Assembly: GCA_035288865.1 (NCBI GenBank)
Contig: DATDZA010000035.1
Location: 6,758 to 70,757 of the forward strand
DNA: 64,000 bases
Source of the DNA: Candidatus Nanoarchaeia archaeon
Lineage (GTDB): Archaea; Nanobdellota; Nanobdellia; Woesearchaeales; GW2011-AR4
Direction of reading: 5' to 3'
In this document: positions 4,337 through 64,000 of the stretch, piece after piece
Layout of the letters: each line of letters begins with the position of its first letter
Position numbering within the stretch: position 1 is the first letter of the stretch
Program-made: the position numbers and the translations under genes
Notes under the pieces: model-generated
Database searches by the model: none
Seen by the model: the letters and a program-made list of their open reading frames with translations, nothing else
Told to the model about the DNA's origin: nothing

Positions 4337-4345
4337 TTTGCACCT

Positions 4346-4576: not shown

Positions 4577-4578
4577 TA

Positions 4579-5091
4579 TTATTCTTCCTCCAATGATATG
4601 CTAAAATTTTTTATCATGAACTCAATTGCTTCTTCTTTTCTGATTCTGTGCCTGGCTGGGATTTTTCTTGCCATCAGTCTTCTTCTCTTTATCCTGTAAC
4701 CCGGCCTTTCCAGCGTAACGCACACTTCAAGCCCCATAATTCCTATTTTTGGATCATACTTGACTCCAGGAATTTCTATATATTCGTGAATGCCAAATGC
4801 AACATTTCCATTCTCGTCAAACTGCCTCGCAGCAAGCTTATGCTCTATTGCCTCAAGCAATCTTGGAAGTATTTTGACTGCCTTTTCTTTTCTCAATGTA
4901 AGCTTGCATCCAATCGGCAATCCCGGCCTTAAGCCCCATTCCTGAATTCTTTTGTTTGTTATTGTCTTTACGGGAGTTGCCTGCGCAATTGCGTTCAACA
5001 GGATCAGACCTTTCTCCAGTTTGGACTGATCTTTGCCTGCCCCGATGTTCAAAGTCACTTTTTCAATTTTAATTGATCTCATTTGGTTCAT
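4579..5091 (-). CDS. rpl5: 50S ribosomal protein uL5
   Basis: 170-aa ORF. ...[11 protein letters not shown]... and ...[25 protein letters not shown]... are uL5-like. Confidence 0.95.
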
Positions 5092-5143
5092 ATTATTAAA
5101 AATTTCATAAGTTTTTAATTCAGCAAATTGTCGTGAATTTTCG

Positions 5144-10245: not shown

Positions 10246-11052
10246 TTATTTGAATAGTTTTTCTTTCTCCAAAATATTAATTGCTGCCTGTGTCCATAAT
10301 GTAAGCCTTCCGGCTTTACCTCCCGGTGCAAGCAGTTCGGCATTCAGGCTTTTTACTTCCACAATATCCATCCCTGGAATGTTCGAAGCTGCTGTGATTA
10401 ACTTGTCTTTTTTTGAAACAACAATTAATATCCCTTTTTTCTGGATATATTTCCTTCCCCTTAACTTTCCTTTTCCGGCCCTTACTTTTCTGCTTTCAAC
10501 CCTTTCCAATTCATTTTCGAGTCCTAATTTTTTTAATGCGTCCAGTACTATTTTTGTCTTGTCGAACGATTCAAATTTATTATCTATGATAAAAGGATAA
10601 TTATCTGGAATTGTGTGACCCCTTTCAGCAACAACTTCTTTTACAACAGTTGCCGAGATTGCGCTTCTGATTGCCTTTGACCTTTCCTTTTCATTGATTT
10701 TGTGCCACCATATTTTTTCTGTTTTTGGTGGATGTGCACGACGTCCGCCTACGGTTCCCGGCATGAAAGCACCGACCCAGTTAAACCTTGTTCCGCTTCT
10801 GGTCATTATTTTTCTTGGAACCCTTGAGATTCCAATGCCGTAAGATCCCCTGTATTTTCTTCTTCGTCTTGAAAGTTTTGCAGAAGCCCTTTTTCCTGCA
10901 AGAGGGCTTGCTGCATAAGGCTGCCTTTTGTGGCTTTGAATAGCCAGCACCGCCCTTAATATTAAGTCAGGCCTTACGTCTTCTGCAAACTGCAGCGGCA
11001 GCTTGATTTCCCCTACCTTGATTTTTGTTGAATCTAAAATATCTAGTTTCAT
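10246..11052 (-). CDS. rpl4: 50S ribosomal protein uL4
   Basis: 268-aa ORF with ...GKRASAKLSRRRRKYRGSYGIGISRVPR.... Confidence 0.9.
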   Translation of the reverse strand: MKLDILDSTKIKVGEIKLPLQFAEDVRPDLILRAVLAIQSHKRQPYAASPLAGKRASAKLSRRRRKYRGSYGIGISRVPRKIMTRSGTRFNWVGAFMPGTVGGRRAHPPKTEKIWWHKINEKERSKAIRSAISATVVKEVVAERGHTIPDNYPFIIDNKFESFDKTKIVLDALKKLGLENELERVESRKVRAGKGKLRGRKYIQKKGILIVVSKKDKLITAASNIPGMDIVEVKSLNAELLAPGGKAGRLTLWTQAAINILEKEKLFK

Positions 11053-11160
11053 TTTAGTTTTCTTGTAAACTTTTATTTTTTATATTATTGATGAATTTTT
11101 TCAATGGTTGTTTTGTTTGCCGTGGGTATCTACTTGATTCATTATTTTAATAATAAAATT

Positions 11161-12132
11161 TTATCTCCCTTGTTTTGATTCCAGGCTGGTGTAAGTTATT
11201 TGCGGCGCATTTGGAACCCCTTTCTTTGGTTTAATGGCCTCTGTTAATCTAATAAATCTTTTTTGCGCGCCGCCCAAAGATCCTTTGACAAGAATGTATG
11301 AATTTTTAACAAGACCGTAATGCAGAAATCCCCCCTTAACATTAACTTCCTCAGTTTTGTTTCCAATTTTTAATACCCATTTATTGTATTCAGTTCTTAA
11401 ATGATAACCCATCTTTCCTGCGTGTGCAGTTCTCCACATTAAATGACCCTGGGCGCGCCATGCACCTAAAGAACCTGGATTACGCCTACTTTTTTCTGAT
11501 TTATGGTGTCTTAATGTAACCCCAAATCTTCGGACGGGTCCCTGAAATCCCCTTCCCCTCGTAACTGAATGAATATCAAGCTGCTGGCCTTCCTTGAAAA
11601 CTTCTGCAACTGCAATCTCTTTTCCTAATTTTTCTTTTGCATAAGCTAATTGCTGCTCTTTGCTTCCACCTAATGCAACTTCAAAAACTTCGGGTCTTTT
11701 CTTGCCAAATCCTGTTAATTTTGGTTGTGTTGCACACATTAATCTTACAAAATCGAAATCGGTTGCTTCTTTTCCTTTTTTAATTGGCAGGTTAATTCTT
11801 CTTCCAAGCTCCTTATCAAGCGAATTGGCATACAACTCAGAAACAAGACGAGAATCATCGCGGAATTTTTTATAAAATCTTATGGAGATTGCCTTTAGTG
11901 GCGGGCATTCAATGACTGTCGTCGGACAGAAAATTTCTGTGCCCTTTGTCAGAGAAGTTTGCCGGTTGTCGGTAATCATAACATGCGACATGCCGACTTT
12001 GTAGCCAGCAAACCCCAGCAGCTTTGCTTCCTTGTTGTTCGGCCAATGCCTTATCCGGGCAGTCTCTGTACTAGATCTGGCTCTCGGCCAAAACTGCATG
12101 CTTCCTGCTCTCGGTGACCTTGTTCTTGGCAT
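11161..12132 (-). CDS. rpl3: 50S ribosomal protein uL3
   Basis: 323-aa ORF starting MPRTRSPRAGSMQFWPRAR..., with ...GYKVGMSHV.... It is the first gene of the cluster. Confidence 0.95.
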   Translation of the reverse strand: MPRTRSPRAGSMQFWPRARSSTETARIRHWPNNKEAKLLGFAGYKVGMSHVMITDNRQTSLTKGTEIFCPTTVIECPPLKAISIRFYKKFRDDSRLVSELYANSLDKELGRRINLPIKKGKEATDFDFVRLMCATQPKLTGFGKKRPEVFEVALGGSKEQQLAYAKEKLGKEIAVAEVFKEGQQLDIHSVTRGRGFQGPVRRFGVTLRHHKSEKSRRNPGSLGAWRAQGHLMWRTAHAGKMGYHLRTEYNKWVLKIGNKTEEVNVKGGFLHYGLVKNSYILVKGSLGGAQKRFIRLTEAIKPKKGVPNAPQITYTSLESKQGR

Positions 12133-12745
12133 TTAATTTTAATACCACACAGACTAATTTGTCTATGCATTTATTCAATGCAAAAAAACCTTTTATTGAA
12201 TGCCTTTTGTAGAAAACAGTTTTCAACTGTACTGAAAAGGCAGTCTTTTCAGGCTTGTTTTTGTATATGTTTAACTTTTAAATTAAACACTAAAATTATA
12301 GTTATTAGGAATAGTATGTGATTTATAAAGGTTGTGGAAAATATAAAAGATTCGAAATTGGTTTTTTGGTATTATGGATTATTACAAGAGACTAAAATTT
12401 TGTATTTAAATTCTGGTTTCGGTACTTCTTTTGTGGGTGGGTTTCATCTCACATAAAAGTACCTGGAACCCATTTCGCTTTTGTTGACAACCGTAAGACC
12501 CGTTTCTTTTTTGTCTGGAAACACAACTTTTGTTTTGTTGTTTGTATTTGTGATTTTCGTGTGGTTTTGGGTTTTGTTGTTGGTACTAAATTAGTTTCTT
12601 TTTGTGTCTTTTTGTCACCAACACGAAATAACTGTGGGATATTTTACTCGTTTGCGGGTATTAGTAACAAAAAACCCGATTCCAGCAACAGTTAATTAAA
12701 TTTTTACGACCAGTGTGTTTTTGTTGTTATATAGTAATAAAAACA

Positions 12746-12780
12746 CCACCACCTACCCCTTTCTTTCGATTGGAAACCCA
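12746..12780 (-). repeat. ORB-like element a
   Basis: The minus strand reads TGGGTTTCCAATCGAAAGAAAGGGGTAGGTGGTGG: a dyad (TTCCA..GAAA) followed by a G-string, pointing away from the AT-rich core. Confidence 0.5.
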
Positions 12781-12898
12781 TTTAATTTTTGTTGTTGTTT
12801 TTTTATCTTGTTTTGTTTTTATTGTTATTTATTATTTTTTCTATATAGTAAATAAATATATAATATAAAAAAAAGACAAAACAAACAATAAATAATAG
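12781..12898. other. candidate DNA-unwinding element (AT-rich core)
   Basis: Hand count is 14 G/C in 118 nt. The left part is T-rich and the right part A-rich on the + strand, with the switch near 12845. It is flanked by inverted ORB-like elements a and b. Confidence 0.45.
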
Positions 12899-12925
12899 TT
12901 CCATAGGAAATGTAGGGGTGGGTTA
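12899..12925 (+). repeat. ORB-like element b
   Basis: The + strand reads TTCCATAGGAAATGTAGGGGTGGGTTA. It shares TTCCA-N3-GAAA-N3-AGGGGTRGGT with element a and lies in the opposite orientation. Confidence 0.5.
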
Positions 12926-12946
12926 AGTAAAGAAAATGTTTATATA

Positions 12947-12964
12947 CCTGTATTTCTTCTGGAA
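12947..12964 (-). repeat. weaker ORB-like element c next to orc1/cdc6 start
   Basis: The minus strand reads TTCCAGAAGAAATACAGG (dyad conserved, G-string degenerate), 6 nt upstream of the orc1/cdc6 ATG. A further weak copy lies on the minus strand at 12497-12520 (TTCCAGACAAAAAAGAAACGGGTC). There is a half-site at 12464-12475. Confidence 0.35.
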
Positions 12965-12969
12965 CCCTT

Positions 12970-46275: not shown

Positions 46276-46777
46276 AAATAAAAAAGGGATAGGGATAGAT
46301 GATGCATTGCCGCTTATAGTTTTTATACTTATTGCCGCTTTTGTAATTTTTGTTTTCCGCATATATGATAGCACAAAACTGGATAAAACAATCAAGAGCA
46401 TTCAGCAGCCAAAAGACGAAATGTATGGCCACGAAATCCTGATCAATTATCTGTCACAAACTGATTCGAAAGGCAACAGCAAAGCAAAAATTATTTCCGA
46501 GCTTTACGTTGGGGGGGAATATGACCAAATAAGTATAGATCTTCAGGCATATTTCAAATCCAAGCTTGAGCCAATAGCAAGATGGGACATTGATATTGTT
46601 ACAGTATATAATGAAAATGTACTTTCTGTAAAAGGGGGATTTTCACCGAATGCAGACAAGCGCTTTATCAATTCAATAAAAATCCCAATTAATTCCCAAA
46701 AACCAAATTACCTTAGTATTCGACTTTTTATGTCAAGGGACTTGCCAATTGATTTTTATTCTGCAAAGGTTGGATAA
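46256..46777 (+). CDS. locus gene R: class III (pilin-like) leader protein
   Basis: 173-aa ORF with a TTG start that overlaps Q by 20 nt. Leader ...SKNKKGIGIDDALPLIVFILIAAFVIFVF. Confidence 0.65.
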   Translation: MRYKISKNKKGIGIDDALPLIVFILIAAFVIFVFRIYDSTKLDKTIKSIQQPKDEMYGHEILINYLSQTDSKGNSKAKIISELYVGGEYDQISIDLQAYFKSKLEPIARWDIDIVTVYNENVLSVKGGFSPNADKRFINSIKIPINSQKPNYLSIRLFMSRDLPIDFYSAKVG

Positions 46778-46778
46778 A

Positions 46779-47912
46779 ATGCTAAGAAGAAACAAGAAAG
46801 GTATTGGATTAGAATGGTATATGCTTATTGTTGCAGTTTTCATAGGTTTTACGACCTTTTTTGTATATCATTTCAGCGGCCAAAAGATAATGGATAATTT
46901 TATTGGTGATTATCAGTTTTCTATACTAAGGTCGGTTCAAGAATCTGAAAAAACCCTCTTTTACGTCGACCAATCCGCCCAATATTCTCTTGAGCAGTCA
47001 GTCTACGATTTGGCAAATAGCGGCGGAGTTTCTGAAATTGAAATCAGTGATGAAGAAAATTTTGCGGGCTACGAATGCGGAAAATATAATGATGCTTATG
47101 TATGGTATCAAGTGATAAAAAAAGACGGGAAGTATGATGCCCAAGAATGTTTTGATGAAAAATCTGCTGAAACAAATCTTGCTTACACGTTTAATCGAAA
47201 CCTTGACAACTATCTTGTAAGTTATCCTGGCAATATACCAACTGATAACTATAAATATGAATTCAAAAATAATCTGGAGATAATCGGCCTTGCTGCATTG
47301 CCGGTTTATATTAATATTTTTAAAAAAGAAATACCGGAAGATTTCTCTACAGAAGCTCGCGAGATTAAGCCAAAACCCCTTGATGCCAAGCAGTTAGATA
47401 AAGACACCACAAAAAATTCTGAAGGATTCAGAGACTTTACAGGCACGGATTTGTGCGCCAAGGGCTCCCGATGCGTCCTTAAGGAAAATGCTTTCCAGCA
47501 GCTTGTGAAAGCGCAGGATGCTGCTGTAAAAAAAGGAATTTCGCTTGAAGTTTATTCTGCTTACAGATCATCGGAACAGCAGCAGGCACTATGGAACGGA
47601 GATACTCCGGAAAAATACGCAGACCGGTATAAAGACCCGACTGTAAGAATAAAATATGTCTGCGATCCAAAAGGTGGAGAGATCAAATGCCCCCACTTGA
47701 GCGGCAATGTTGTTGATATAAGATTGAAAGGAAAGACAACTAAAACAATGAACAGCGCTGAATGGAATATTTTGTACAGTATTATGACTTCAGCAGACTC
47801 AAACAAGCAGCCTTTGTGGGTTAAATACTCAAACGAGCCGTGGCATTTTGAGTGCTGCAATACACCAAGATACTCAAGAGCTATAGAAAAAGGAGTGACT
47901 TCAATAGTGTAA
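46779..47912 (+). CDS. locus gene S: pilin-like leader fused to VanY/M15-type (LAS) zinc peptidase domain
   Basis: Start taken at ATG 46779, 1 nt after R. Leader MLRRNKKGIGLEWYMLIVAVFIGFTTFFVY. The C-terminal domain carries SAYRSSEQQ (from 47556), H-x6-D in CPHLSGNVVD (His 47694-47696, Asp 47715-47717) and EPWHFE (His 47844-47846). This is the D,D-carboxypeptidase VanY / L-Ala-D-Glu peptidase motif set. Confidence 0.7.
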   Translation: MLRRNKKGIGLEWYMLIVAVFIGFTTFFVYHFSGQKIMDNFIGDYQFSILRSVQESEKTLFYVDQSAQYSLEQSVYDLANSGGVSEIEISDEENFAGYECGKYNDAYVWYQVIKKDGKYDAQECFDEKSAETNLAYTFNRNLDNYLVSYPGNIPTDNYKYEFKNNLEIIGLAALPVYINIFKKEIPEDFSTEAREIKPKPLDAKQLDKDTTKNSEGFRDFTGTDLCAKGSRCVLKENAFQQLVKAQDAAVKKGISLEVYSAYRSSEQQQALWNGDTPEKYADRYKDPTVRIKYVCDPKGGEIKCPHLSGNVVDIRLKGKTTKTMNSAEWNILYSIMTSADSNKQPLWVKYSNEPWHFECCNTPRYSRAIEKGVTSIV

Positions 47913-51286: not shown

Positions 51287-51511
51287 ATGAATTTGAATTC
51301 TAAAATGAATGAAGAAAATGCATTGGTTGTGTTTCAGGACAAGAGGATAAGGAGAATATGGCATGATAATGAATGGTATTTTTCCGTTGTGGATGCAGTT
51401 GCTGCTTTAACAGAGAGCCTTGATTCTAAAGATTACTGGTATAGGCTCAAAAAGAGAGAGCAAGAGGCAGGTGTTGAGTTATCGACATTTTGTCGACAAC
51501 TGATTTTATAA
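51287..51511 (+). pseudogene. Bro-N domain gene fragment (N-terminal ~70 aa only)
   Basis: The 74-aa ORF ...VVFQDKRIRRIWHDNEWYFSVVDAVAALTES.DSKDYWYRLKKR...ELSTFCRQL matches the N-terminal Bro-N pattern. It stops where full-length members continue, and its 3' end collides with the hsdM remnant. Confidence 0.55.
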
Positions 51512-52060
51512 GCGGGCGCGGAGTGTAATACTCTCCGCCATTTCTGCCGGCATTGCCCATATTTTGAATTTTTGCTTCATACAAGTGGGACATTTCGTGT
51601 TTTTCAGCGTGAGAGCCAAAACGCAGCCCGTCAATCAAATTAATTACTTCACGCAGATTATAGCCGCTTTGAATTCTATTTTTTAGTTCGCTAAAAATCT
51701 CACCAATCTTATATTGGATTGTATCTGCATTTTCCGCATTTACTTTAAATTTTTTAAAATAAGGAAATAATTTATTATTGACAAAATCTGTTAAATCGTC
51801 CCCGGTAAGTGCTTTATGATGGTCTAACTTGCCATCTTTGCCTTTTGGCTTGCCCAAACGCCCCATTGAAACTCTAGGCTAATTATACTAACATAAGTTT
51901 TGCCTGTCAACTGCGCAGAGGTATGTTTTTCTTTTTCAAGGTCATCAATATATTTTAAAAATAGAATCCAAGAAGTTTGCTCTATATAATCTAATTCACT
52001 GCTACAACCTGCATCTTTCCAAAGAACGTCATCTACATTCTTAAAAATTTGTTCAAACAT
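51489..52060 (-). pseudogene. hsdM: type I restriction-modification methyltransferase (HsdM) remnant, frameshifted and 3'-truncated
   Basis: Two overlapping ORFs in different frames. 51824-52060 reads MFEQIFKNVDDVLWKDAGCSSELDYIEQTSWILFLKYIDDLE.... 51447-51866 reads ...GKLDHHKALTGDDLTDFVNNKLFPYF...IGEIFSELKNRIQSGYNLREVINLIDGLRF...NAGRNGGEYYTPRPLI. Together they give only the HsdM N-terminal region. The frameshift is near 51840-51866 and the catalytic domain is absent. Confidence 0.75.
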
Positions 52061-52785: not shown

Positions 52786-53820
52786 ATGGAACAGGAATTA
52801 ATGGAACAATTAGAAGATGTTAAGGAAACAAAAAGAAAAAGAAAAGAAATGAAATCAGAAAAATCTGAAGAGCCGGAAACCAAGAAAGAGCAGTCAATCT
52901 ATGACCTGCCGGGAGTAGGCGCAGCTACGGCTGAAAAATTAATGGCAGTTGGCTACACTGACTTGATGAGCATTGCGGTAGCAAGCCCGGGTGAATTAAT
53001 AGAAGCGACGGGAATGGGAGATGCAGTCGCAAAAAAACTCATAGCAATTGCAAGAAGTAATCTTGAAATGGGGTTTGAATCGGGAGAAGAATTATTGAAA
53101 AGAAGAGAAAAAGTCATCAGATTAAAGACTGGAAGCAATGCATTGAACACTTTGCTGGGCGGCGGGTTTGAAACAGGCGCAATTGTGGAATGTTTCGGAG
53201 AATTCGGCTCAGGAAAAACACAAATAGGCCATTCTTTGGCAGTTATGGCGCAGACTGTGGAAAAGGATGCAGTTGCAGTCTACATTGACACAGAAAACAC
53301 TTTCAGGCCGGACAGGATAATTCAATTGGCGAAAGGCGCCGGACTGGATCCGGACCAGGTTTTGAAAAATATAAAAGTTGCAAGAGCTTACAACTCCGAC
53401 CACCAGATGCTGTTGGCGGAAAAAGTTGAAGATTTAATCAAGAAGCAGGGACTGAATGTCAAACTAGTTGTTGTGGATTCATTAACTGCCCATTTCAGGG
53501 CGGAGTTCATTGGCCGCGGCACATTAGCAGAAAGACAGCAGAAATTAAACAGGCACTTGCACGTTCTTGCCAAACTGGCAGACAGATATAATTTCTGTGT
53601 TTATGTTACCAACCAGGTAATGGCAAAGCCAGACATGTTTTTTGGCGACCCTACACAGGCCATCGGCGGGCATATTGTAGCTCACGCCTCAACTTTCCGT
53701 GTCTACCTGAGAAAAGGAAAGAAAGGAACGAGAGTTGCAAAATTAATAGATTCACCAAATCAGCCTGAAGGGGAAGCGGGATTTTATGTTGACGAATCCG
53801 GGATAAAAGACGTTGAATAA
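52786..53820 (+). CDS. radA: RadA recombinase
   Basis: 344-aa ORF. Hh[13 protein letters not shown], Walker [10 protein letters not shown], and ...[14 protein letters not shown].... It has a ~35-aa K/E-rich N-terminal extension. Confidence 0.95.
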
Positions 53821-53858: not shown

Positions 53859-53981
53859 TTGATTTATTGAATTTCAAACAAGTGATTCTTTCTTCAATAA
53901 ACTTAATTCTTGCATCGTATAACAAACCTTTTAAAATAGCATAAACTCCGGGATATATTCGACTACAGTAAATGGATCATC

Positions 53982-54653
53982 ATGAAAAAGAAAAAGATAG
54001 CTGCATTCTTTGATTTTGACGGTACAATCTACAAAGGGCTGGTTGCTTTCGACATTTTCACATTTGCTTTTAGAAATGGCATTATGAACCTCTCCGAGAT
54101 GCTTACATTATCCAAGCTTTCGTACTATTATGTTCTAGATAAATTCAATCTCGCAGAAAGAATATCCATAAACAAGAGGCTGTACAAAAAAATTAAAGGA
54201 CTGAAGTCGGAAGAGTTAGTTGGATCAGCGTCAGAAAAATTTTTTTTACATAACAAATATAAAAAATTTTATCCCGATATTATGGGAATTATCGGGTGGC
54301 ATGCAAAAAATGGGCACAGAATTGTGGTAGTTACATCCGCAATTAAAGAAACGGTGAATCCCGTTAAAAAATTGATTAAGATTGACGAGATAATTTCAAC
54401 AGAAGTAGAAACAAAAAATGGAATATATACAGACACTGTTAAAATACTGCCCGTAGGGCAGAACCGCATAGATCTCATAAAAAATTATTGCAAAAAACAC
54501 AATATAGATTTGAGGAGGAGCTATGCCTACTCAGACCATTTTTCTGACATACCTTTGCTCGAGAGCGTGGGCAATGCCATTGTTACCAGCCCTGACAGGA
54601 GGCTGAGGGCGCATGCAGTAAAAGAAGGATGGAAAATAATAGAGAATAGATAG
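53982..54653 (+). CDS. HAD superfamily hydrolase, subfamily IB (SerB-like)
   Basis: 223-aa ORF. Motif I FFDFDGTIY, motif II VVTSA and motif IV AYSDHFSDIPLL. Confidence 0.8.
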   Translation: MKKKKIAAFFDFDGTIYKGLVAFDIFTFAFRNGIMNLSEMLTLSKLSYYYVLDKFNLAERISINKRLYKKIKGLKSEELVGSASEKFFLHNKYKKFYPDIMGIIGWHAKNGHRIVVVTSAIKETVNPVKKLIKIDEIISTEVETKNGIYTDTVKILPVGQNRIDLIKNYCKKHNIDLRRSYAYSDHFSDIPLLESVGNAIVTSPDRRLRAHAVKEGWKIIENR

Positions 54654-54731
54654 CACAAGACACACAAAACCGGCAGTAACGCAAGTTCTTCACCAAAACC
54701 TTTTTAATACAATATTTAATAGTTAAAGACT

Positions 54732-55379
54732 ATGATTCATCCATACCATCGCTGGTTTATGCATATTTGGATGCTATGGACTAGAAGTATAGGGGGACTT
54801 GAAAACATTCCAAGAGGAAAAGCTTTCATAATTGCATTAAACCACTCAAGTTATTATGATACCGGGCTTGTCCATGCATTGCTAATCCCTTTATTGGATA
54901 AAAAAGTGCATCCTTTCGTAAACAGCTCTTACTGGAAATATAAATTTGTTGCAAGAATATTTCTTAGCCCGGGAGAGGCTATTCCAATTTACATAAAAAA
55001 AGAAGATAATTACAAGCAAAAAAACAAAAAGGCATTCAATAAAGCGCTCTATTATGCAAAAAAAGGAGAGCCTCTTATGATTTTTCCGGAAGGGAAAAGG
55101 AGCAAAGACGGGAAACTGGGAAAGGCTTACACAGGAATTGCAAAGCTGGCATTGAAAGCGAAGATTCCTGTAATTCCTATGGGAGTTATTGGCTCAAACA
55201 AAGTCTGGCCAAAAGGCAAAACCTTTCCAAGATTCAAAAGATGCGATATCAAAATCGGAAAGCCTATTTATTTTGAAGATTACTATAATAAAAAACCAAC
55301 CGAGTATATTTATGAACAAGTTACGAGAATCATAATGAAAGAGATAGCAAAACTAATCGGGCAAAAATACGACTACTAA
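54732..55379 (+). CDS. plsC: lysophospholipid/glycerol-phosphate acyltransferase (PlsC family), paralogue 1
   Basis: 215-aa ORF. Motif I ALNHSSYYD (NHxxxxD) and motif III FPEGKRS. Confidence 0.85.
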   Translation: MIHPYHRWFMHIWMLWTRSIGGLENIPRGKAFIIALNHSSYYDTGLVHALLIPLLDKKVHPFVNSSYWKYKFVARIFLSPGEAIPIYIKKEDNYKQKNKKAFNKALYYAKKGEPLMIFPEGKRSKDGKLGKAYTGIAKLALKAKIPVIPMGVIGSNKVWPKGKTFPRFKRCDIKIGKPIYFEDYYNKKPTEYIYEQVTRIIMKEIAKLIGQKYDY

Positions 55380-55380
55380 A

Positions 55381-56010
55381 ATGGTGTATTCAATACTTAA
55401 AATATGGTTTCCACCTTTATGCAAGCTATGGGTTAGCAAAATACAAGGAATTGAAAATATACCAAAAAACATGCCTTTTATCATTGCTGCCAACCATAGC
55501 AGCTATTATGATGATGTTTTGACTTATGCAATAATTGTTCCTCAAACAAACAAACAAATCCACGCACTTGTAAACAGCACTTATTGGAAAAAATTCCCGG
55601 CAAAACAAATAATCGAGCATGGCAAGTGCATACCCGTTTACGTCGGGAAAAATTATGATGCTGATAGAAACAAGAAATCACTCCAGCTTGCAGTGGAGTA
55701 TTTAAAAAAAGGTGACCTGATTATGATATTTCCTGAGGGCACTAGGAGCATTGACGGAAAAATTAAAAAAGGCCACAGCGGAGTTGCAAAAATTGCGTTA
55801 AAATCAAAGACACTGGTCTTGCCGATTGGAATCAAGGATTCAAATAAGGTGCTTCCAAAAGGTGCTGGATTTATGAAATTTGCAAGATGCAGCGTTATAA
55901 TCGGAAAGCCATTGAGCTTTGAAAACTACAATAAAAATTCATATGGCAAGGTAACAAGAATTATAATGCAAAAAATTGCAAAGCTAACAGGGCAAGAATA
56001 CAACTACTAA
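55381..56010 (+). CDS. plsC: lysophospholipid/glycerol-phosphate acyltransferase (PlsC family), paralogue 2
   Basis: 209-aa ORF, 1 nt after paralogue 1. Motifs AANHSSYYD and FPEGTRS. Confidence 0.85.
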   Translation: MVYSILKIWFPPLCKLWVSKIQGIENIPKNMPFIIAANHSSYYDDVLTYAIIVPQTNKQIHALVNSTYWKKFPAKQIIEHGKCIPVYVGKNYDADRNKKSLQLAVEYLKKGDLIMIFPEGTRSIDGKIKKGHSGVAKIALKSKTLVLPIGIKDSNKVLPKGAGFMKFARCSVIIGKPLSFENYNKNSYGKVTRIIMQKIAKLTGQEYNY

Positions 56011-56011
56011 A

Positions 56012-56641
56012 ATGGCATATCCAATCGGAAAATACATCATCGTTCCATTTTTTAATTTATGGCTCAAGCAGATAAGCGGAATTGAAAATCTGCCTCCCGA
56101 TGCATTCATAATTGCTGCCAACCACTCCAGTTATATGGATCATCCTCTAATCGTCGGAAATATTGTTAAACACAAAAACAGAAAAGTTCATTTCCTTTCA
56201 AAAAAAGAGCACTTTGACACAACGCTAAAAGCAATATGGCACAGATATGCAGGAGCAATCCCTTTAGACAGGCAAAGAGGTGGAAAACTTGCTTTAAAAA
56301 AAGCTGTAAAAATATTAAAAGAAGGAAAAATTATTGCCATCCATCCCGAAGGGACAAGAAGCCTTGATGGCAAATTAATGAGGGCAAAAACAGGAATAGC
56401 AAGGCTTTCATTAGCTGCAAAGGTTCCTGTTGTCCCGGTCGGATTGATAGGAACTTTTGAAATACTTCCGAAAGGCAAATATATTCCCAGGATGAAAAGG
56501 GCCATAATACATATAGGCAAGCCGATGTATTTTGGCAAATATTATAGAAAGCCCGTGACCAAAAGATTATTAAGGGAAATCACAACAAAAATAATGAAAG
56601 AGATTGCCAAATTGTCAAACAAAAAATATGAATTTGATTAA
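56012..56641 (+). CDS. plsC: lysophospholipid/glycerol-phosphate acyltransferase (PlsC family), paralogue 3
   Basis: 209-aa ORF, 1 nt after paralogue 2. Motifs AANHSSYMD and HPEGTRS. Confidence 0.85.
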   Translation: MAYPIGKYIIVPFFNLWLKQISGIENLPPDAFIIAANHSSYMDHPLIVGNIVKHKNRKVHFLSKKEHFDTTLKAIWHRYAGAIPLDRQRGGKLALKKAVKILKEGKIIAIHPEGTRSLDGKLMRAKTGIARLSLAAKVPVVPVGLIGTFEILPKGKYIPRMKRAIIHIGKPMYFGKYYRKPVTKRLLREITTKIMKEIAKLSNKKYEFD

Positions 56642-56779
56642 AGATAAATTAAAATATAATGATTAATAATAAATTAATGAAGCTATCTCACTTTTAATAA
56701 TAATTAAAAATATTGTCAATTAAGAATATGAGAATAGCGTGAGAATTATATTAAACAATAAAAAATTCAAATAAATAAA

Positions 56780-57757
56780 ATGAAAATATCCATAATAGGG
56801 GCAGGAAGCTGGGGCACGGCTTTAGCAATCCTTTTAAGCGAAAAAGGATTTGATGTGAAATTATGGGCAAGAAGAAAAGAGCTCGCAAATGAAATTAACA
56901 TCAAAAAAGAAAATACACAATATTTGCCTGGAATAAGAATTCCAAACAATCTGGTAGTCGACTCTTCATTAAAAAATGTTACAGATGGTTCTGATATTAT
57001 GATTACAGCCGTCCCGAGTGAATTCTTGAGAGCCACTTTGAGTGAACTCAAGCCATTTTTCAAAAATCAAATTGTTGTCAGCGTCACAAAAGGAATTGAG
57101 CATTCAACGGGAAAAAGGATGACAGAAGTTATCGAAGATGTTTTAGGAAAAAATTCTAAAGTCACTGCGCTGTCCGGACCAAACCATGCAGAGGAAGTCG
57201 GGAGAAAGATGCCGACTGCAAGCGTGCTGGCAAGCAATAACCAGAAACTTGGTAAGTTCGTTGCGGAAAAATTAAGCACGCCTGCTTTTAAAGTTTATTA
57301 TTTAAATGATGTTGCCGGAGTGGAAACTTGCGGAGCCCTTAAAAATATTACAGCCATCGCAACCGGAGTGTGCGATGGATTTGGCTTTGGAGACAATGCA
57401 AGGGCTTCAATAATTACTTTGGGATTGATGGAGATGAATAATTTTGGAAGGCATTTCGGTGCGAAAAGAGGAACAGTATACGGATTGGCAGGTGTTGGAG
57501 ACTTAATTGCAACCTGCGTCAGCAAGCACAGCAGGAACAGGTTTGTAGGCGAGCAACTGGCAAAAGGAAAAACAATGAAGGAAATAAAAAACGAGATGCA
57601 TGGCATGATAGCAGAAGGGATTTCCACAACAAAAGCTGTTTATGAATATTCTATGAAGCACAAAATACAGATGCCGTTAACAAATCAGGCCTATGAAGTT
57701 CTTTTCAACAACAAAGATATTAAGAAAGCGATTGTGGATTTATTGAATTTGGTTTAA
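56780..57757 (+). CDS. gpsA: NAD(P)H-dependent sn-glycerol-3-phosphate dehydrogenase
   Basis: 325-aa ORF that aligns by eye along its full length with bacterial GpsA. Shared motifs: IIGAGSWGTALA, ...VTKGIE..., LSGPNHAEEV, GALKNITAIATG, ...NARASIITLGL.EM... and GVGDLIATC.S..SRNR. Confidence 0.93.
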   Translation: MKISIIGAGSWGTALAILLSEKGFDVKLWARRKELANEINIKKENTQYLPGIRIPNNLVVDSSLKNVTDGSDIMITAVPSEFLRATLSELKPFFKNQIVVSVTKGIEHSTGKRMTEVIEDVLGKNSKVTALSGPNHAEEVGRKMPTASVLASNNQKLGKFVAEKLSTPAFKVYYLNDVAGVETCGALKNITAIATGVCDGFGFGDNARASIITLGLMEMNNFGRHFGAKRGTVYGLAGVGDLIATCVSKHSRNRFVGEQLAKGKTMKEIKNEMHGMIAEGISTTKAVYEYSMKHKIQMPLTNQAYEVLFNNKDIKKAIVDLLNLV

Positions 57758-57767
57758 AGGAGATTTC

Positions 57768-58430
57768 ATGTCTTGGTTTCATAATATTAATAACTTTAGT
57801 TTGGAAATTTATAATAAGGAATTAGGTAAATTTATTCGTGATGCAAATAGTTTTTCTTGGTTTAACCATTTGCCTAGCTTTGGCATGTCTTATAACGGTA
57901 AGGGATTCATAGAATTGTTTCAGATGCATGAAAAGTCGCAAAAACTTATATTTAATGAATTTGTTGAAAAAGATTTAGATATTGTTTTGTATTGCATTAA
58001 AGAAAAGCACATTAACGATGAATGGCTAAAATGTTTTGAATGGTATAATAAAAGAAAGAGAGCTATAAATAGGGCACATTCAGTATTCAAAACTTTTATT
58101 TCTCCATTCTTATACAGATCTATACTTCCAAGCATGTATAAAAAACTCTTACGATACGGAAGTATAACAGCGAATCTTACCGACCAATTCGAGGGTGAAT
58201 CTTTTCGACAAGCAAATCTTCCAAGATCTGATTATATATGGGCGTCAGATTTTATAGAAAAAGCATGGGAAGGCACTCAAAATTTGAATCCGGCAATAAT
58301 CGTGATATACAGGAAAAAATATTTTTATAAGTGGAAGTCAGGTTATGGCGGCTATGTCTGGATCAAAAAAGATAAAAGTACAGATTACAGGGATACAATT
58401 GAAGCTATAATAAAAGTAAGATATTATTAA
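57768..58430 (+). CDS. hypothetical protein (orphan)
   Basis: 220-aa ORF, aromatic-rich (W/Y/F), with no recognised motif. Confidence 0.5.
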   Translation: MSWFHNINNFSLEIYNKELGKFIRDANSFSWFNHLPSFGMSYNGKGFIELFQMHEKSQKLIFNEFVEKDLDIVLYCIKEKHINDEWLKCFEWYNKRKRAINRAHSVFKTFISPFLYRSILPSMYKKLLRYGSITANLTDQFEGESFRQANLPRSDYIWASDFIEKAWEGTQNLNPAIIVIYRKKYFYKWKSGYGGYVWIKKDKSTDYRDTIEAIIKVRYY

Positions 58431-58455: not shown

Positions 58456-59061
58456 TTATTCTTCTGTGAAATCCTCAATCTTCTGCGGCAACTCTTCATC
58501 TTCTTTTAACTTACCTTTTGCCTTGAGGAATTCTTTTGTTAGGATGTAGAACAGCAATCCCAGGGATTTCTTTCCCTTGTTGTTGCACGGTATGACAAAG
58601 TCAAGATAATTGGTCTGATTGTTTGTGTCACACAGCGCAATCACTGGAATGCCGACTTTTACTGAATCAAGGACTGCATTTCTGTCGGGCCAGGCATCAA
58701 CTACCATTACAATTTTTGCTTCCGTGTAATCTTCAAGGTTGGGGTTTGTCAAAATTCCCGGAGGATAACGCCCGGCAAATGTTCTTACTCCAGCCAATTT
58801 TCCAAACAATTCAACCGCTTTCCATCCGTTTTCCCGCCTGCATATGATTAAGATATCCTTTAGTTCATATTGGGCCAGAAAAGTCGCGGCAACTCTTATC
58901 CTTTCATCTATTTTCTGCAGGTTTAAAACAGACAATCCGTCCGGCCTTGTTTTGTAGATGAACTGATCCATGTATGCGGTTCTGAACTTCGTGCCTATGT
59001 GTATTCCTGATTTGAGATAAACATCCCTTGGAACCAAAAACTTATCTTCTGCCATTTTCAA
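58456..59061 (-). CDS. rps2: 30S ribosomal protein uS2
   Basis: 201-aa ORF with ...YLKSGIHIGTKFRTAYMDQFIYKTRPDGLSVLNLQKIDERI... and ...VGIPVIALCDTNN.... Confidence 0.93.
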   Translation of the reverse strand: MKMAEDKFLVPRDVYLKSGIHIGTKFRTAYMDQFIYKTRPDGLSVLNLQKIDERIRVAATFLAQYELKDILIICRRENGWKAVELFGKLAGVRTFAGRYPPGILTNPNLEDYTEAKIVMVVDAWPDRNAVLDSVKVGIPVIALCDTNNQTNYLDFVIPCNNKGKKSLGLLFYILTKEFLKAKGKLKEDEELPQKIEDFTEE

Positions 59062-60392: not shown

Positions 60393-61181
60393 TCAGAAAT
60401 CACCAATCTTTGGCCAATTAGCCATTACACAGCCGCCATCGATAACAAGAGTTTGGGCTGTAATGTAGCTAGCGGCATCGCTTGAAAGGAAAGTTACAGC
60501 ATCTGCGATTTCCTGCACATCTGCAAATCTTCCCATAGGAACCTCTTTTTTGAGTTTTTCAAACTTTTTTTGGTCGTTTACAAGCTCGTACTTTAAGCCG
60601 CTTGTATTAACAAATCCAGGCGCAACAACATTAACGTTTATGCTGTATTTTGCCCATTCAAGTGCAAGACTTCTTGTTAAATTAATCACGCCAGCCCTTG
60701 CGGCGCCTGAATGAATCATTCCTGCAGCCGATTTTACTGCATAAATAGTGACCATGTTTGTTATCTTGCCGTACTTTTGCTTTTTCATAAATTCTCCGGC
60801 GGCCTTGCAGCAGTAGAATGTATTATAAAGATTTGTCTTGACTACGGCATCAAATCCATTTGGAGAGATTTTTTCAATTGGAGCTAGAAATTGTCCGCCG
60901 GCGTTGTTTACAAGAAAATCAATTCTTTCATATTCTTTTGCAATATCTTTGAATACCTTTTCTACCTGAGTAAAATCCCTTAAATCAGCCTGAAATCCAA
61001 TGCATTTTGAAAACTTGCTTAGCTCTTTGACACCGGAATCAACATTCTCTTTTTTTCTATGAACTATTGCAATCTTTGCCCCAAGCTTTCCGAACTGGGT
61101 GGCAATTGATTTTCCTATTCCTGTTCCCCCTCCCGTGATTACAGCAATTTTTCCCTTGAACAAATTTTTTGCAAATATCAT
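60393..61181 (-). CDS. short-chain dehydrogenase/reductase, dienoyl/enoyl-CoA reductase-like
   Basis: 262-aa ORF. Cofactor motif ITGGGTGIGKS and NNAGG. The active-site region HSGAARAGVINLTRSLALEW resembles the DECR/PECR subgroup. Confidence 0.65.
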   Translation of the reverse strand: MIFAKNLFKGKIAVITGGGTGIGKSIATQFGKLGAKIAIVHRKKENVDSGVKELSKFSKCIGFQADLRDFTQVEKVFKDIAKEYERIDFLVNNAGGQFLAPIEKISPNGFDAVVKTNLYNTFYCCKAAGEFMKKQKYGKITNMVTIYAVKSAAGMIHSGAARAGVINLTRSLALEWAKYSINVNVVAPGFVNTSGLKYELVNDQKKFEKLKKEVPMGRFADVQEIADAVTFLSSDAASYITAQTLVIDGGCVMANWPKIGDF

Positions 61182-61223
61182 CTTGCTTTGAGTATTTGTT
61201 TTGCATTAAAAAGGTTTTGATTT

Positions 61224-62705
61224 TTATCTTATTCTATATCTTATTCCTTCCGGATCTATTTCATTTAAGATTTTAATATCTTTATCTGTTAATTCACTTA
61301 ATTTTTTAGCATTTACGTCTTCCAAGTCAAATCCAGTATTATCCTTAATTTCCCAGATACTTGAAACTGGGTAATATCCCAGAATTTCCGGTTTTTTGCC
61401 GAGCTTCAATATTCCGAGATTGCTTATGACTATTGTGTCATTATCTGAGCTCGTAGTTATAAAATCAACTTTATCGACAAAAGTTCTCTTTGAATGATTT
61501 TGAGTTGTTATGATAGTTCTTTTACATAAATTCCTTAAAGTAACGGCGCCTGCAGGGCCAGGAAGCTTGACTTTTGGCTTTTTATAATCGCCTATGCATG
61601 TTATGTTCGCCTCGCCTTTTTTTGAAATTTGAACTGCGCCAAAAAACATCAAGTCTATGTCCCCTTTTAGCGCAAAATCCCAAACTTTGTCAAGCTCTAT
61701 GAATGAATCTTTTCTTTCAAGCGCATTTACTGTCACAGAAGAATACGCTGGGCTCTTGATGTCGGGGTTGATTGCGCCGCTTCCGCAGTTAAAATAATTA
61801 AATTTCTTGCCTAATTTTCTTGCAAACATTGTTGCCAGCATCGGCAATGGTGAAGCTACCCCAGTTGCAACCGATTTATTGTCTATTATGAAATCTGCCA
61901 AAGTTGTAATTATATAATCAGTCTGTTTTTTTTCAATTTCATTCTTTGCAGGTTTTTCATTTCCATTATTTTTTCCATTACTCAGATATTCACGTATTTT
62001 TTTTGCATCATAATTGTAGAATTTAAAACATGAAGTAGGCAATGCACCATTTTTTATTTCAACAATAAAATCAATTTTTTCTGCAGGAATAGTTATTTCT
62101 TCTAATTTATCAGCTATTTTTTCCACGCTGACAATAACCTTTTTGCTTGCTTTTGCAATCAGCTTATCAATCAAGGGGTCATTTATGAACACATTTCCTT
62201 TTCTGTCTGCATATTGGGCATGAATCAGAGCGAAATCAGGGTTCAGTGCATTTGTCATTATGCTTCCGCCGCTTTTTTTGTATTCATTAAATTTTAAGTA
62301 ATTTGTATTTTTAAATGAGGAAACTTCAATTTCATTTAGTCCTAATGCAGCGGCTTTCAAGGCTTGAATTATCTCCAGTATGTCCGTTTCTTTCCATTTA
62401 ATCAAACCATTTTCTATTGCTTTCCGCCAATTTGGGGCTATTACAAACCCGTCTTCATAAGAAAATCCATTGAATCCGAAAATGGCTTCTCTAACGCAGT
62501 TATTTTTTATCAAAACGTCTGCTGCAAGCGGGTTTGGAATGCTGATTATTTTAAGATTTTTTTTCTTTTGCCTTGCTATTTCAAAAATCAGCGCCATTGG
62601 AGCCCGATTCAACTCCATTCCCGAAAAGGTAATGAAGCTGCCGTCTTTAATTTTTTCAATAGCCTTCGCTAGTGTTGTAAATTCCATTTTAGGCCACAAT
62701 TTCAC
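61224..62705 (-). CDS. CoA-transferase, fused subunit A-like and B-like halves
   Basis: 493-aa ORF. The N-terminal half (...AIEKIKDGSFITFSG...DFALIHAQYADRKGNVFIN...) is like family I CoA-transferase alpha. The C-terminal half (...GSGAINPD...FFGAVQISKKGEANI...LPGPAGAVTL...) is like beta. Confidence 0.55.
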   Translation of the reverse strand: MKLWPKMEFTTLAKAIEKIKDGSFITFSGMELNRAPMALIFEIARQKKKNLKIISIPNPLAADVLIKNNCVREAIFGFNGFSYEDGFVIAPNWRKAIENGLIKWKETDILEIIQALKAAALGLNEIEVSSFKNTNYLKFNEYKKSGGSIMTNALNPDFALIHAQYADRKGNVFINDPLIDKLIAKASKKVIVSVEKIADKLEEITIPAEKIDFIVEIKNGALPTSCFKFYNYDAKKIREYLSNGKNNGNEKPAKNEIEKKQTDYIITTLADFIIDNKSVATGVASPLPMLATMFARKLGKKFNYFNCGSGAINPDIKSPAYSSVTVNALERKDSFIELDKVWDFALKGDIDLMFFGAVQISKKGEANITCIGDYKKPKVKLPGPAGAVTLRNLCKRTIITTQNHSKRTFVDKVDFITTSSDNDTIVISNLGILKLGKKPEILGYYPVSSIWEIKDNTGFDLEDVNAKKLSELTDKDIKILNEIDPEGIRYRIR

Positions 62706-63486
62706 TGTCCATATTTATTAGAAATCCTTCCTTGTCAATCTGCCTTAGTATTTTTAATTCATCCTTTGATGGCTCCTTGGTTATTTCAATATTTTTAGGC
62801 ACAATTGGCTGAAATCCAGTTTTATCGAGAACTTCCTGCAAATTTGAACTGGAATGGATTGATTTTATTCTCATAATTCCATTTTCAAAATCAAAAACAC
62901 AAAGGGGAGTTATGCAAAGCAGCGGGCCGCCGGCTATTCCATATTTTTTTCTTGTATTATAGCCGATGCTTGAAATATAATAAACTTCCTCGACAAATCT
63001 TCTTTTCGAGTGTTCCAAGCTGAAAATAAAATATTTTTTTGATAGCTGCGCAATAGAAGTTGTCCCGATTGAGCCCGGACCCCTGAATTTAAATTTCCTA
63101 TTTTCATCTTTTGTGCCGATTAAATTAGTGTTTCCTGATTTATCAATCTGCAGCCCTGAAACAAAAAAAGTATCACATAATTTATTTTGCTCATTTGGAT
63201 TTGCTATACTTAAAATCGAATCGTGTTTTTCATTATACTGCACAAGAAGATGCGACTTGCTATCAACATTTGAAGTCCAGGCTGCGGGATTTAATTCAAC
63301 CACATTATTTACACTTAAACCGTGCCTTATTTTCAGTTTTGGAGAATATAATTTCTGGGCAAGAAAAGCCGCGGCTAACGTGAATTCTGCATGCAGTCCA
63401 AATGCAACAGTATCATCATTTTTTAACTCTCTGGCTATCACGCACGCCAACAATTCCCCAATTGAGTGGTTTTTATTGATTTTCAT
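62689..63486 (-). CDS. CoA-transferase subunit B-like
   Basis: 265-aa ORF with ...ELLACVIARELKNDDTVAFGLH..., ...FVSGLQIDKSGNTNLIG... and ...RGPGSIGTTSIA.... Confidence 0.55.
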   Translation of the reverse strand: MKINKNHSIGELLACVIARELKNDDTVAFGLHAEFTLAAAFLAQKLYSPKLKIRHGLSVNNVVELNPAAWTSNVDSKSHLLVQYNEKHDSILSIANPNEQNKLCDTFFVSGLQIDKSGNTNLIGTKDENRKFKFRGPGSIGTTSIAQLSKKYFIFSLEHSKRRFVEEVYYISSIGYNTRKKYGIAGGPLLCITPLCVFDFENGIMRIKSIHSSSNLQEVLDKTGFQPIVPKNIEITKEPSKDELKILRQIDKEGFLINMDSEIVA

Positions 63487-63497
63487 TTTAATCTTAA

Positions 63498-64000
63498 TTA
63501 TTTATTCTTAAGTTTTAATGAATTTAATTCATTTTTTCCAATTAGTTTGATATAATCCTCATGATTTTTCATATTGAAAACGTATTTTTTAAGATAGTCA
63601 TTGAATTTTCTTTCTCTGCAGTACCTGGCATATTCTTTATAATGGTTTAAATCTGGAATATAAAATCCATTTGAAGCGCCAGGATGGGCTCCGAAGGGAA
63701 TCTCTATAACTTGCGCATTTCTTATAATTGTTCTTTCTGGATGCCGCATTATTGCCACGTTATTAACAATTTTTTCAACAGAACAAACCACTTTAGTTGA
63801 TGATTCTGCTAATTCCTGCTCGCAAAATAATCTTCCAAGAAAAATGTTATTTGGAAACTGCACGTTTCCTTTTGAGTCAGCAATTCCACAATGCAAAAAT
63901 GAAATATCAATATTTATCGGGGGAATTTTTAAATAATATTTTCCATTTATCTTTATTTCTTTAATATCCTCATTTAACCTCGGAATACTGCTTCCAAAAC
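63498..64000 (-). CDS. CoA-transferase subunit A-like (5' end beyond window end)
   Basis: The track ORF 63498-63896 starts at a TTG, but the frame stays open to the window edge. My translation upstream is FGSSIPRLNEDIKEIKINGKYYLKIPPINIDISFL-HCGIADSKGNVQF.... The pattern DISFLH...ADSKGN is typical of the alpha subunit. Confidence 0.55.
   Translation of the reverse strand, partial: FGSSIPRLNEDIKEIKINGKYYLKIPPINIDISFLHCGIADSKGNVQFPNNIFLGRLFCEQELAESSTKVVCSVEKIVNNVAIMRHPERTIIRNAQVIEIPFGAHPGASNGFYIPDLNHYKEYARYCRERKFNDYLKKYVFNMKNHEDYIKLIGKNELNSLKLKNK

Follow-up and report, generated by a model that had tools for sequence, protein, structure and literature searches.

A predicted glycerol-3-phosphate acyl-lipid gene island between radA and rps2 in Woesearchaeota-type DPANN archaea

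Genes of bacterial type for glycerol-3-phosphate lipids have been reported previously from uncultivated archaea. GpsA was reported in Woesearchaeota in 2016 (PMC5059525). PlsC and PlsY homologues were described in 2019 for DPANN archaea, together with their bacterial origin, and also for Marine Group II/III and Asgard archaea (PMC6431249), and a bacterial glycerol-3-phosphate dehydrogenase as well as fatty-acid genes have been recorded in Woesearchaeota (PMC8204110). Matches to ElbD, Ger and Mss in Woesearchaeia were added in 2025 (PMC11868695). The present analysis concerns a cluster of five genes, encoding a HAD-IB hydrolase, three PlsC-like acyltransferases and GpsA, found in a 64 kb stretch of contig DATDZA010000035.1 from a Candidatus Nanoarchaeia archaeon; this whole stretch is referred to as the window. 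In public records, these proteins already carry the names PlsC and GpsA.

Within a clade of DPANN archaea of the Woesearchaeota type, the cluster is part of a predicted lipid island that has a fixed place between radA and rps2 and has been vertically kept. Judged from the sequences, it is probable (about 0.6) that the island is a working module of old bacterial origin for the synthesis or re-acylation of glycerol-3-phosphate acyl lipids. Such a module bears on the 'lipid divide', on the membrane supply of the ultra-small DPANN archaea and on models of the archaeal-to-eukaryotic membrane transition.

The locus, its conservation and its origin

The left border of the island is radA (52786-53820, + strand; TIGR02236, 447.8 bits; PF08423) and the right border is the convergent gene for the archaeal/eukaryotic type ribosomal protein uS2 (58456-59061, − strand; TIGR01012, 233.6 bits), and both borders are conserved. 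The archaeal identity of these flanks was recognized in the initial annotation, and the five genes listed there were all recovered on the + strand by open reading frame (ORF) and family searches. They encode a HAD-IB phosphatase-like hydrolase (53982-54653; TIGR01490, 127.9 bits, cutoff 98.3), the acyltransferases AT1 (54732-55379), AT2 (55381-56010) and AT3 (56012-56641), which score 71, 84.3 and 96 bits, respectively, with PF01553 (cutoff 23), and a full-length NAD(P)H-dependent sn-glycerol-3-phosphate dehydrogenase, GpsA (56780-57757; NF000942, 402.5 bits, cutoff 257). The start of AT1 is placed at 54759 by gene callers rather than at 54732, the start of the ORF. An ORF of 220 aa without a Pfam or NCBIfam match (57768-58430, + strand) begins 10 nt 3' of gpsA and ends 25 nt from the convergent uS2 gene; its membership in the system is uncertain. 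The other gaps are 161 nt (RadA-HAD), 78 nt (HAD-AT1), 1 nt (AT1-AT2), 1 nt (AT2-AT3) and 138 nt (AT3-GpsA).

The exact GpsA protein is present on 16 contigs, and the same order of RadA, HAD, three acyltransferases, GpsA, 220 aa ORF and uS2 was found in six assemblies (ENA, JGI and Logan samples). Among 31 related loci, each representing a species (loci are designated by L numbers), 28 contain two acyltransferase genes followed by gpsA and the convergent uS2 gene, with RadA upstream in 27 of these 28, and the contigs of the remaining three end just upstream of GpsA. GpsA is followed by uS2 in all 31, and also in L087 and L095, and RadA also precedes the acyltransferases in L097. Beyond the convergent uS2 gene, the conserved loci continue with genes for LigT, a TRAM protein and an SDR.

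This conservation bears on whether the cluster could be an artefact, either a bacterial fragment mis-assembled or mis-binned into archaeal DNA, or a decaying relic of a transfer that has no function. The genes are of bacterial type, and one related contig, L036 (LBZW01000039.1), is filed under a bacterium of the candidate phyla radiation, 'Candidatus Nomurabacteria', and has frameshift-like breaks in RadA and GpsA. However, the same junctions recur in six independent assemblies and the same flanks in 28 species-level genomes, there is no compositional anomaly, and the ORFs in the window are intact, with the catalytic motifs kept in about 30 orthologues per group. L036 itself carries the island with archaeal RPA, RadA and uS2, and because of these archaeal genes its bin label appears to be wrong. 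The contig that includes the window is archaeal beyond doubt, as its other genes include a ribosomal-protein operon, Orc1/Cdc6, PolD DP1/DP2, MCM with an archaeal winged helix, TBP, RNase P p30 and RPA. Chimerism, on which the initial annotation had made its own interpretation conditional, is thus effectively excluded, and an artefact of either kind is extremely improbable. Other public labels in this group appear to be wrong as well: many of the sister metagenome-assembled genomes (MAGs; L007, L009-L011 and others) are titled 'uncultured Methanosarcinales archaeon', although their proteins match Woesearchaeota.

Not all of the genes in the window are part of the conserved arrangement. A third acyltransferase was found only in the species of the window, where AT2 is the extra copy, and a different extra copy is present in L018. 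The HAD gene occupies the island position only in the window and in its three nearest relatives (L007, L008 and L036), and the 220 aa ORF is confined to contigs of the same species (L001-L006) and is absent from L007-L037 and L087-L091. Since these three are lineage-restricted, the conserved, ancestral unit is two acyltransferases, one of type A and one of type B (defined below), together with GpsA, and the HAD gene, the third acyltransferase and the 220 aa ORF are lineage-specific additions, the first two of them recent. The triplicated acyltransferase, in which, along with the compact operon, the initial annotation saw the novelty, is therefore a lineage-specific feature. A conserved 233 aa protein without a Pfam match lies in the gap between GpsA and uS2 in L016 (8986-9687), L019 (2418-2918) and L034 (3884-4585). 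This gap is a variable insertion spot, and the 220 aa ORF in the window is unrelated to the 233 aa protein.

GpsA includes the domains PF01210 (183.7 bits), PF07479 (185.8 bits) and PF20618 (72.7 bits), and the motifs GAGSWG (residues 7-12), GALKN (185-189) and SRNR (251-254), of which the last two align with those of the Thermotoga maritima enzyme (1Z82). We take the lysine of GALKN to be a substrate or catalytic residue and the arginine of SRNR to be a phosphate-binding residue. Against solved structures, it scores 249 bits with T. maritima 1Z82 and 230 bits with Coxiella 3K96, but only 116 bits with Archaeoglobus 1TXG, and it is bacterial-type, in agreement with the initial annotation.

The closest homologues of GpsA (73-90 % identity) carry, without exception, the label Woesearchaeota, Nanoarchaeota or Nanoarchaeia. 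With one genome per species, identity is 66-90 % across the 31 loci and then drops to ≤45 % in bacteria. The clade forms about one 50 %-identity cluster, and the next representatives, 44-49 % identical, are MAGs labelled Promethearchaeota, Latescibacterota, KSB1, Nitrospirota and Methanobacteriota. The G+C content, third-position G+C content and codon usage of the five genes are within the normal range of the window. This gap between GpsA and its outside relatives, together with the normal composition, indicates that the island is an old acquisition. Recent horizontal transfer from an identifiable donor was considered and is not supported, as there is no compositional anomaly and the nearest GpsA outside the clade is ≤49 % identical with mixed archaeal and bacterial labels. 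The donor lineage sought in the initial annotation cannot be named from these data. The genomic context of the closest GpsA outside the clade is uninformative, as the contigs are short.

Acyltransferase types, the alternative architecture and proposed function

The three acyltransferases fall into two types, with AT1 and AT2 (51 % identical) in type A and AT3 in type B. Types A and B share 40-45 % identity and are 31-36 % identical to the bacterial acyltransferases with which they were compared. Block I, the catalytic HX4D dyad (residues 37-44), is NHSSYYD in AT1 and AT2 and NHSSYMD in AT3, and is kept in about 30 orthologues of each type. Block III (within residues 112-124) is PEGKRS in AT1 (119-124) and PEGTRS in AT2 and AT3, and block IV, a strand with proline, is PVIPMG in AT1, the variant LVLPIG in AT2 and PVVPVG in AT3. 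The types are distinguished by block II, which is IPLDR in AT3, aligned to FLDR of T. maritima PlsC (TmPlsC), but IPIYI (84-88) in AT1 and IPVYV in AT2. The consensus of type A, taken from AT1, AT2 and 28 orthologues (30 sequences), lacks the block II arginine, and at this place the orthologue alignment gives 'iPvyv.k.k..k.kN' with a lysine-rich insert of six residues. The consensus of type B (AT3 and 28 others) is ANHxSYmDH, GAiPlDR, IhPEGTRs and PVxPiG, which corresponds to the four blocks of lysophosphatidic acid acyltransferases (LPAATs) and glycerol-3-phosphate acyltransferases (GPATs).

The best PDB match of AT3 is TmPlsC (5KYM; E=3.4e-21). An AlphaFold2 model of AT1 (pLDDT 92.6) matches 5KYM with a TM-score of 0.63-0.65 and the squash GPAT 1K30 with a TM-score of 0.67, and PatA and LpxM are also among its structural matches. 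The two-helix membrane motif at the N-terminus of TmPlsC has no counterpart, as about 20 residues precede the catalytic core. No clear transmembrane helix is present in any of the three proteins, which are all basic, with a pI of about 10.

In a neighbour-joining tree, which carries no support values, types A and B are sister clades relative to the bacterial gpsA-adjacent acyltransferases, a pattern that fits duplication after acquisition. A recent tandem duplication as the source of AT1 and AT2 is not supported, given that they are only 51 % identical and are not sisters in the tree. The acyltransferases share 54-60 % identity with those of L007 and L008, though GpsA is 89-90 % and RadA 97-98 % identical there, and the GpsA of L037 is 66 % identical to that in the window, yet its type B enzyme is 72 % identical to AT3. 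Because these identities are incongruent with those of the neighbouring genes, the island acyltransferases either evolve fast or undergo cassette exchange within the clade.

A larger island was found at the same RadA to uS2 site in L087, L095 and L097, and in rearranged form in L088. All four carry a fusion of a FadD-like ligase and 3-hydroxy-3-methylglutaryl-CoA (HMG-CoA) reductase, a HAD-IB protein, a LarA homologue and a PlsB-like GPAT, and contigs that are long enough add a YegS-type lipid kinase (L088, L095 and L097), one type B acyltransferase (L088 and L097) and GpsA (L087, L088 and L095). Pieced together from these loci, the order starts with RadA, which is followed on the opposite strand by a type-B-like acyltransferase, the YegS-type lipid (diacylglycerol) kinase and a zinc-dependent alcohol dehydrogenase; after these come the FadD-like/(carrier)/HMG-CoA reductase fusion, HAD-IB, the LarA homologue, the PlsB-like GPAT, GpsA and the convergent uS2. 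The GPAT has all four blocks (PNHRSVFD, YFVRR, IEGGR and VPV). No type A acyltransferase was found in the large-architecture loci, and the 31 small-architecture loci, searched over ±8 kb, contain neither a GPAT nor the ligase fusion, a LarA homologue or a lipid kinase. A metagenome scan with the archaeal GPAT alignment returned a single fragment of 2.3 kb.

The fusion protein of the large architecture (about 900-1080 aa) consists of a FadD-like long-chain fatty-acid-CoA ligase domain, a weak PP-binding region and a class-I HMG-CoA reductase domain (TIGR00533, 378-386 bits), and was found in L088 (3879-7004), L090 (3822-6971), L095 (2752-5427), L096 (4410-7652), L097 (6191-9004) and L087 (1-2061, cut). 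It is always directly upstream of the HAD-IB orthologue, so that a FadD-like ligase domain is linked to this orthologue in relatives; it has no homologue in the window. Its possible activities are the synthesis of mevalonate from carrier-bound HMG or, as for ElbD, the reduction of fatty acids to alcohols. The LarA homologue, between HAD-IB and the GPAT in L087 (5414-6994), L088 (7825-9405), L095 (6132-7709) and L097 (9692-11269), belongs to NF052592 (LarAH14/15/16), for which the L088 copy scores 746 bits, at the cutoff. The LarAH14/15/16 group includes a gluconate 2-epimerase (PMC11770544), and the idea that the homologue might be a glycerol-phosphate racemase is purely speculative.

The HAD-IB protein in the window scores above the subfamily cutoff and has HAD motifs I-IV (DFDGT, residues 11-15; VTSA, 117-120; SDHFSD, 184-189). 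Identification as a histidinol-phosphatase (88 bits, cutoff 280) or a phosphoserine phosphatase (26.8 bits, cutoff 144) was ruled out by score. Orthologues with 43-61 % identity occur in the larger lipid clusters of relatives. HAD-IB proteins accompany lipid genes both in relatives and in bacteria, and this one probably dephosphorylates a lipid or glycerol phosphate intermediate.

The predicted pathway begins with GpsA, which belongs to a family that interconverts dihydroxyacetone phosphate and sn-glycerol-3-phosphate and presumably acts here in the direction of reduction. The PlsC-superfamily acyltransferases would then esterify the glycerol phosphate backbone with fatty acyl groups supplied by a thioester donor. 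To our knowledge, archaea generally lack acyl carrier protein (ACP), and acyl-CoA would for this reason be the more likely donor. AT3, because it has the full LPAAT motif set, would most likely turn lysophosphatidic acid into phosphatidic acid, and type A, because it holds the place taken by the PlsB-like GPAT in sister lineages, would be either a first-step GPAT or an enzyme that re-acylates lysophospholipids. PlsC and PlsY are reported to take both glycerol-phosphate stereoisomers, which PlsB does not (PMC13400652), and the case for an sn-3 backbone is therefore made by GpsA and not by the acyltransferases.

The first of the two options for type A can be put more strongly. Type A would then be a GPAT class of a new kind, which arose inside the Woesearchaeota by duplication of a transferred plsC and displaced the PlsB-like GPAT that sister lineages still have at this locus, and the clade would make phosphatidic acid de novo. 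This proposal, which comes mainly from the complementary occurrence of type A and GPAT, is tentative and on balance doubtful. If it is true, type A, type B and GpsA would form a minimal phosphatidic acid pathway without PlsB/PlsY or ACP, and a large and widespread archaeal clade would build sn-glycerol-3-phosphate diacyl membranes, bacterial-type or mixed, by itself. The complementarity is a specific prediction, and the locus supplies a short, directly testable set of genes.

A number of observations weigh against a glycerol-3-phosphate acyl-lipid module, or against its de novo form, in addition to the lack of support values in the tree. The complementarity is based on only four or five large-architecture loci. 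The initial annotation described three PlsC enzymes with intact motifs, and this holds for NHxxxxD and PEG[KT]RS in all three, but only AT3 has the block II arginine and none reaches the TIGR00530 (PlsC) cutoff of 102.95 bits (53.9 for AT1, 54.5 for AT2 and 82.7 for AT3). This arginine is said, in work by Lewin et al. from 1999, to help bind the phosphate of glycerol-3-phosphate or lysophosphatidic acid, and type A, from which it is missing, therefore fits poorly as a GPAT. The modelled fold of AT1 does not separate GPAT from LPAAT, as it matches both about equally. Enzymes of the PF01553 family accept many different acceptors, and the GpsA reaction is reversible. No ACP, acyl-CoA ligase or PlsX, and no CdsA (for CDP-diacylglycerol) or head-group genes, were found in the 64 kb of the window, and no first-step acyltransferase of the PlsB or PlsY kind was found there or within ±8 kb in the 31 related loci. 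The cluster itself contains no source of activated acyl groups; genes for CoA-transferases, SDRs and a thiolase/HMG-CoA synthase/DUF35 set are present downstream in the window.

Further genes in the islands of relatives bear on a second interpretation. Patatin-like phospholipases (PF01734) are encoded inside the island in L012 (5198-6058, − strand), L013 (6107-6724, + strand) and L018 (1405-2310, + strand, and 4260-5153, − strand), and other relatives have an α/β-hydrolase, a HAD_2 phosphatase, a CMAS-like methyltransferase or a large lipase-like protein. Salvage and remodelling alone, as in a Lands cycle, would involve diacyl- or lyso-phospholipids and fatty acids obtained from bacterial hosts or neighbours. 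The scavenged lipids would be trimmed by phospholipases and the lysolipids re-acylated without any de novo phosphatidic acid, type A acting like Aas on lysophospholipids that bear a head group. GpsA would either top up glycerol-3-phosphate or work in the opposite direction, so that scavenged glycerol-3-phosphate could enter glycolysis. The phospholipases, the α/β-hydrolase and the lipase-like protein speak for this reading, and the Aas-type acyl-ACP-phospholipid acyltransferase is the top NCBIfam model for AT2 and a close second for AT1. The loss of the block II arginine would suit an acceptor without a free phosphate monoester, the window contains no GPAT or fatty-acid synthesis genes, and DPANN archaea are generally thought to scavenge lipids and to modify them (PMC11868695 and PMC7242380). 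On the other hand, re-acylation of lysolipids alone does not readily account for the strict, order-wide linkage of acyltransferases and GpsA, as GpsA makes the free backbone; in sister lineages, a bona fide PlsB-like GPAT is encoded beside GpsA at the same site; and patatin genes were found in just 3 of 31 loci. We consider salvage alone to be rather unlikely, though it deserves serious attention.

Two further observations concern the same islands. A patatin-like phospholipase gene is also present in L035 (about 10700-11470, − strand), either within or beside the island. In five relatives, a conserved SAM-dependent methyltransferase (Methyltransf_11, with weak similarity to CMAS) is encoded between RadA and type A (L014, 4179-5003; L022, 5809-6522; L030, 2656-3498; L033, 3148-3969; and L035, 3475-4293; all on the − strand), and may be a lipid methyltransferase.

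The breadth of PF01553 also allows for a role outside membrane glycerolipids, in which GpsA would serve an archaetidylglycerol head group or glycerol-phosphate polymers and the acyltransferases would act on amino-acid lipids, glycolipids or proteins. AT2 has weak NCBIfam similarity to OlsF, OlsA and GlsA (E values of 1e-4 to 3e-8, far under the cutoffs), PatA and LpxM are among the structural matches of AT1 mentioned above, and GpsA is recorded in some euryarchaea with normal archaeal lipids (PMC5059525). However, the best sequence and structure matches are to PlsC and GPAT, AT3 retains the phosphate-binding block II together with block III, the adjacency of GpsA is conserved, a PlsB-like GPAT, a lipid kinase and phospholipases are present in relatives, and the same linkage is found in bacteria, where its function is phospholipid synthesis. 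A role of this kind is improbable. A role in glycerol-3-phosphate acyl lipids, proposed in the initial annotation, is the best reading and is favoured by the bacterial acyltransferase-gpsA operons, a bacterial fusion protein (L041, described below), the patatins in relatives and the PlsB-like GPAT in the same slot.

Other features of the window

The five genes are likely to form more than one transcription unit, with HAD alone, AT1-AT2-AT3 together and gpsA with the 220 aa ORF. The 1 nt gaps suggest translational coupling of AT1, AT2 and AT3. Motifs resembling an archaeal B recognition element (BRE) and TATA box are located 57 nt 5' of the HAD start (AACCTTTTAAAA, 53925-53936, + strand) and 34 nt 5' of the AT1 ATG at 54732 (ACCTTTTTAATA, 54698-54709, + strand). 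The pattern, A[AC]C[CT]TTTT[TA]?A[AT]A, was defined post hoc and has three occurrences on both strands of the window, two of which are these. They weakly hint at separate but similar putative promoters for HAD and AT1. A scan for sigma-70 promoters and terminators gave only noise, as expected in an AT-rich archaeon, and tRNA and Rfam scans of the window gave no matches.

Downstream of the island, the region from 60393 to 64000, which continues into L001 (13614-20971), encodes on the − strand an SDR, three CoA-transferases, a DUF35 protein, a thiolase, an HMG-CoA-synthase-like protein and an SDR. The thiolase, HMG-CoA synthase and DUF35 genes are an archaeal set, to which the CoA-transferases are added. 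The CoA-transferases were considered as a conserved acyl-activation partner of the island, and were ruled out as they are absent from all related loci.

Three other regions of the window are of note. A run of + strand ORFs extends over 22 kb (27484-49696), with nearly no Pfam matches. Among its products are two proteins of 1062 and 716 aa, one of 1974 aa that contains TSP3 and Big_3 repeats, and a VanY/M15-like peptidase (46749-47912), and the run may be concerned with the cell surface or with host interaction. A gene-free stretch of 837 bp (12133-12969), where the GC skew changes sign, separates the ribosomal operon from Orc1/Cdc6; it contains repeated AACCCATTT…TTTTGTTG and GTTTTGTTGTT elements and may be a replication origin. 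Short overlapping ORFs at 51287-52060, one of them (78 aa, 51824-52060) with an HsdM_N match, resemble what is left of a methylase gene of a type I restriction-modification system.

Comparison with known systems

The closest single-gene counterparts are the PlsC (5KYM) and GpsA (1Z82) of T. maritima, which belong to the same two families, and AT3 aligns with the catalytic domain of TmPlsC over the four blocks. The stretch that precedes this domain is about 20 residues in the window enzymes versus about 65 in TmPlsC. As for gene order, an acyltransferase is encoded directly upstream of gpsA in 12 actinobacterial loci, in the same orientation, as in the window. Unlike the bacterial plsC/gpsA systems, the window has an archaeal host, no PlsB or PlsX/PlsY nearby and a type A enzyme without the block II arginine, and the archaeal clade has two or three PlsC-like paralogues.

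A further counterpart is L041, a Bacteroidota MAG that encodes a GPAT, HAD-IB and PlsC fusion of 1080 aa, with gpsA immediately downstream. Its modules are a PlsB2-like GPAT (NF002886, 457 bits) with GPAT_C, a HAD-IB module (TIGR01490, 158.6 bits) and a PlsC module (TIGR00530, 126 bits, over the cutoff). Like the window, it combines a TIGR01490-type HAD-IB with two acyltransferase modules and gpsA, and the L041 protein is a Rosetta-stone fusion of the gene set in the window. They differ in that the first acyltransferase of L041 is PlsB2-like and everything except gpsA is fused, whereas the genes in the window are separate and the partner of the PlsC enzyme is a divergent PlsC paralogue; the HAD proteins are 28 % identical. 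The Mycobacterium tuberculosis pair of plsB2 (Rv2482c) and Rv2483c (HAD-IB and PlsC) is presumably similar to the L041 fusion.

For type A, two enzymes offer functional comparisons. In mycobacteria, glycerol-3-phosphate itself is acylated by PlsM (Rv2182c), which is PlsC-like (PMC10593935). As a small soluble or monotopic PlsC fold without predicted transmembrane helices, PlsM resembles type A and is a precedent for a first acylation by such an enzyme, but it works together with PlsB2. Aas, as the best NCBIfam model for AT2 and the second for AT1, is compatible with re-acylation beside phospholipases, but the scores are 49-58 bits against a cutoff of >1200, and the window enzymes have no fused acyl-ACP synthetase domain.

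The lipid genes previously reported from archaea belong to the same families and to the same archaeal group as those in the window, and the accessible passages of the earlier papers (PMC5059525, PMC6431249 and PMC8204110) consist of presence/absence data and single-gene trees. Keyword searches of the searchable literature returned no description of the radA-acyltransferase-acyltransferase-gpsA-rps2 island, the split between types A and B or the GPAT-containing alternative. Relative to these reports, the advance is a modest one, and comprises the conserved three-gene core at a fixed site, the GPAT-containing version at that same site, with the complementary occurrence of type A and GPAT, and the recurrent insertion of phospholipase genes.

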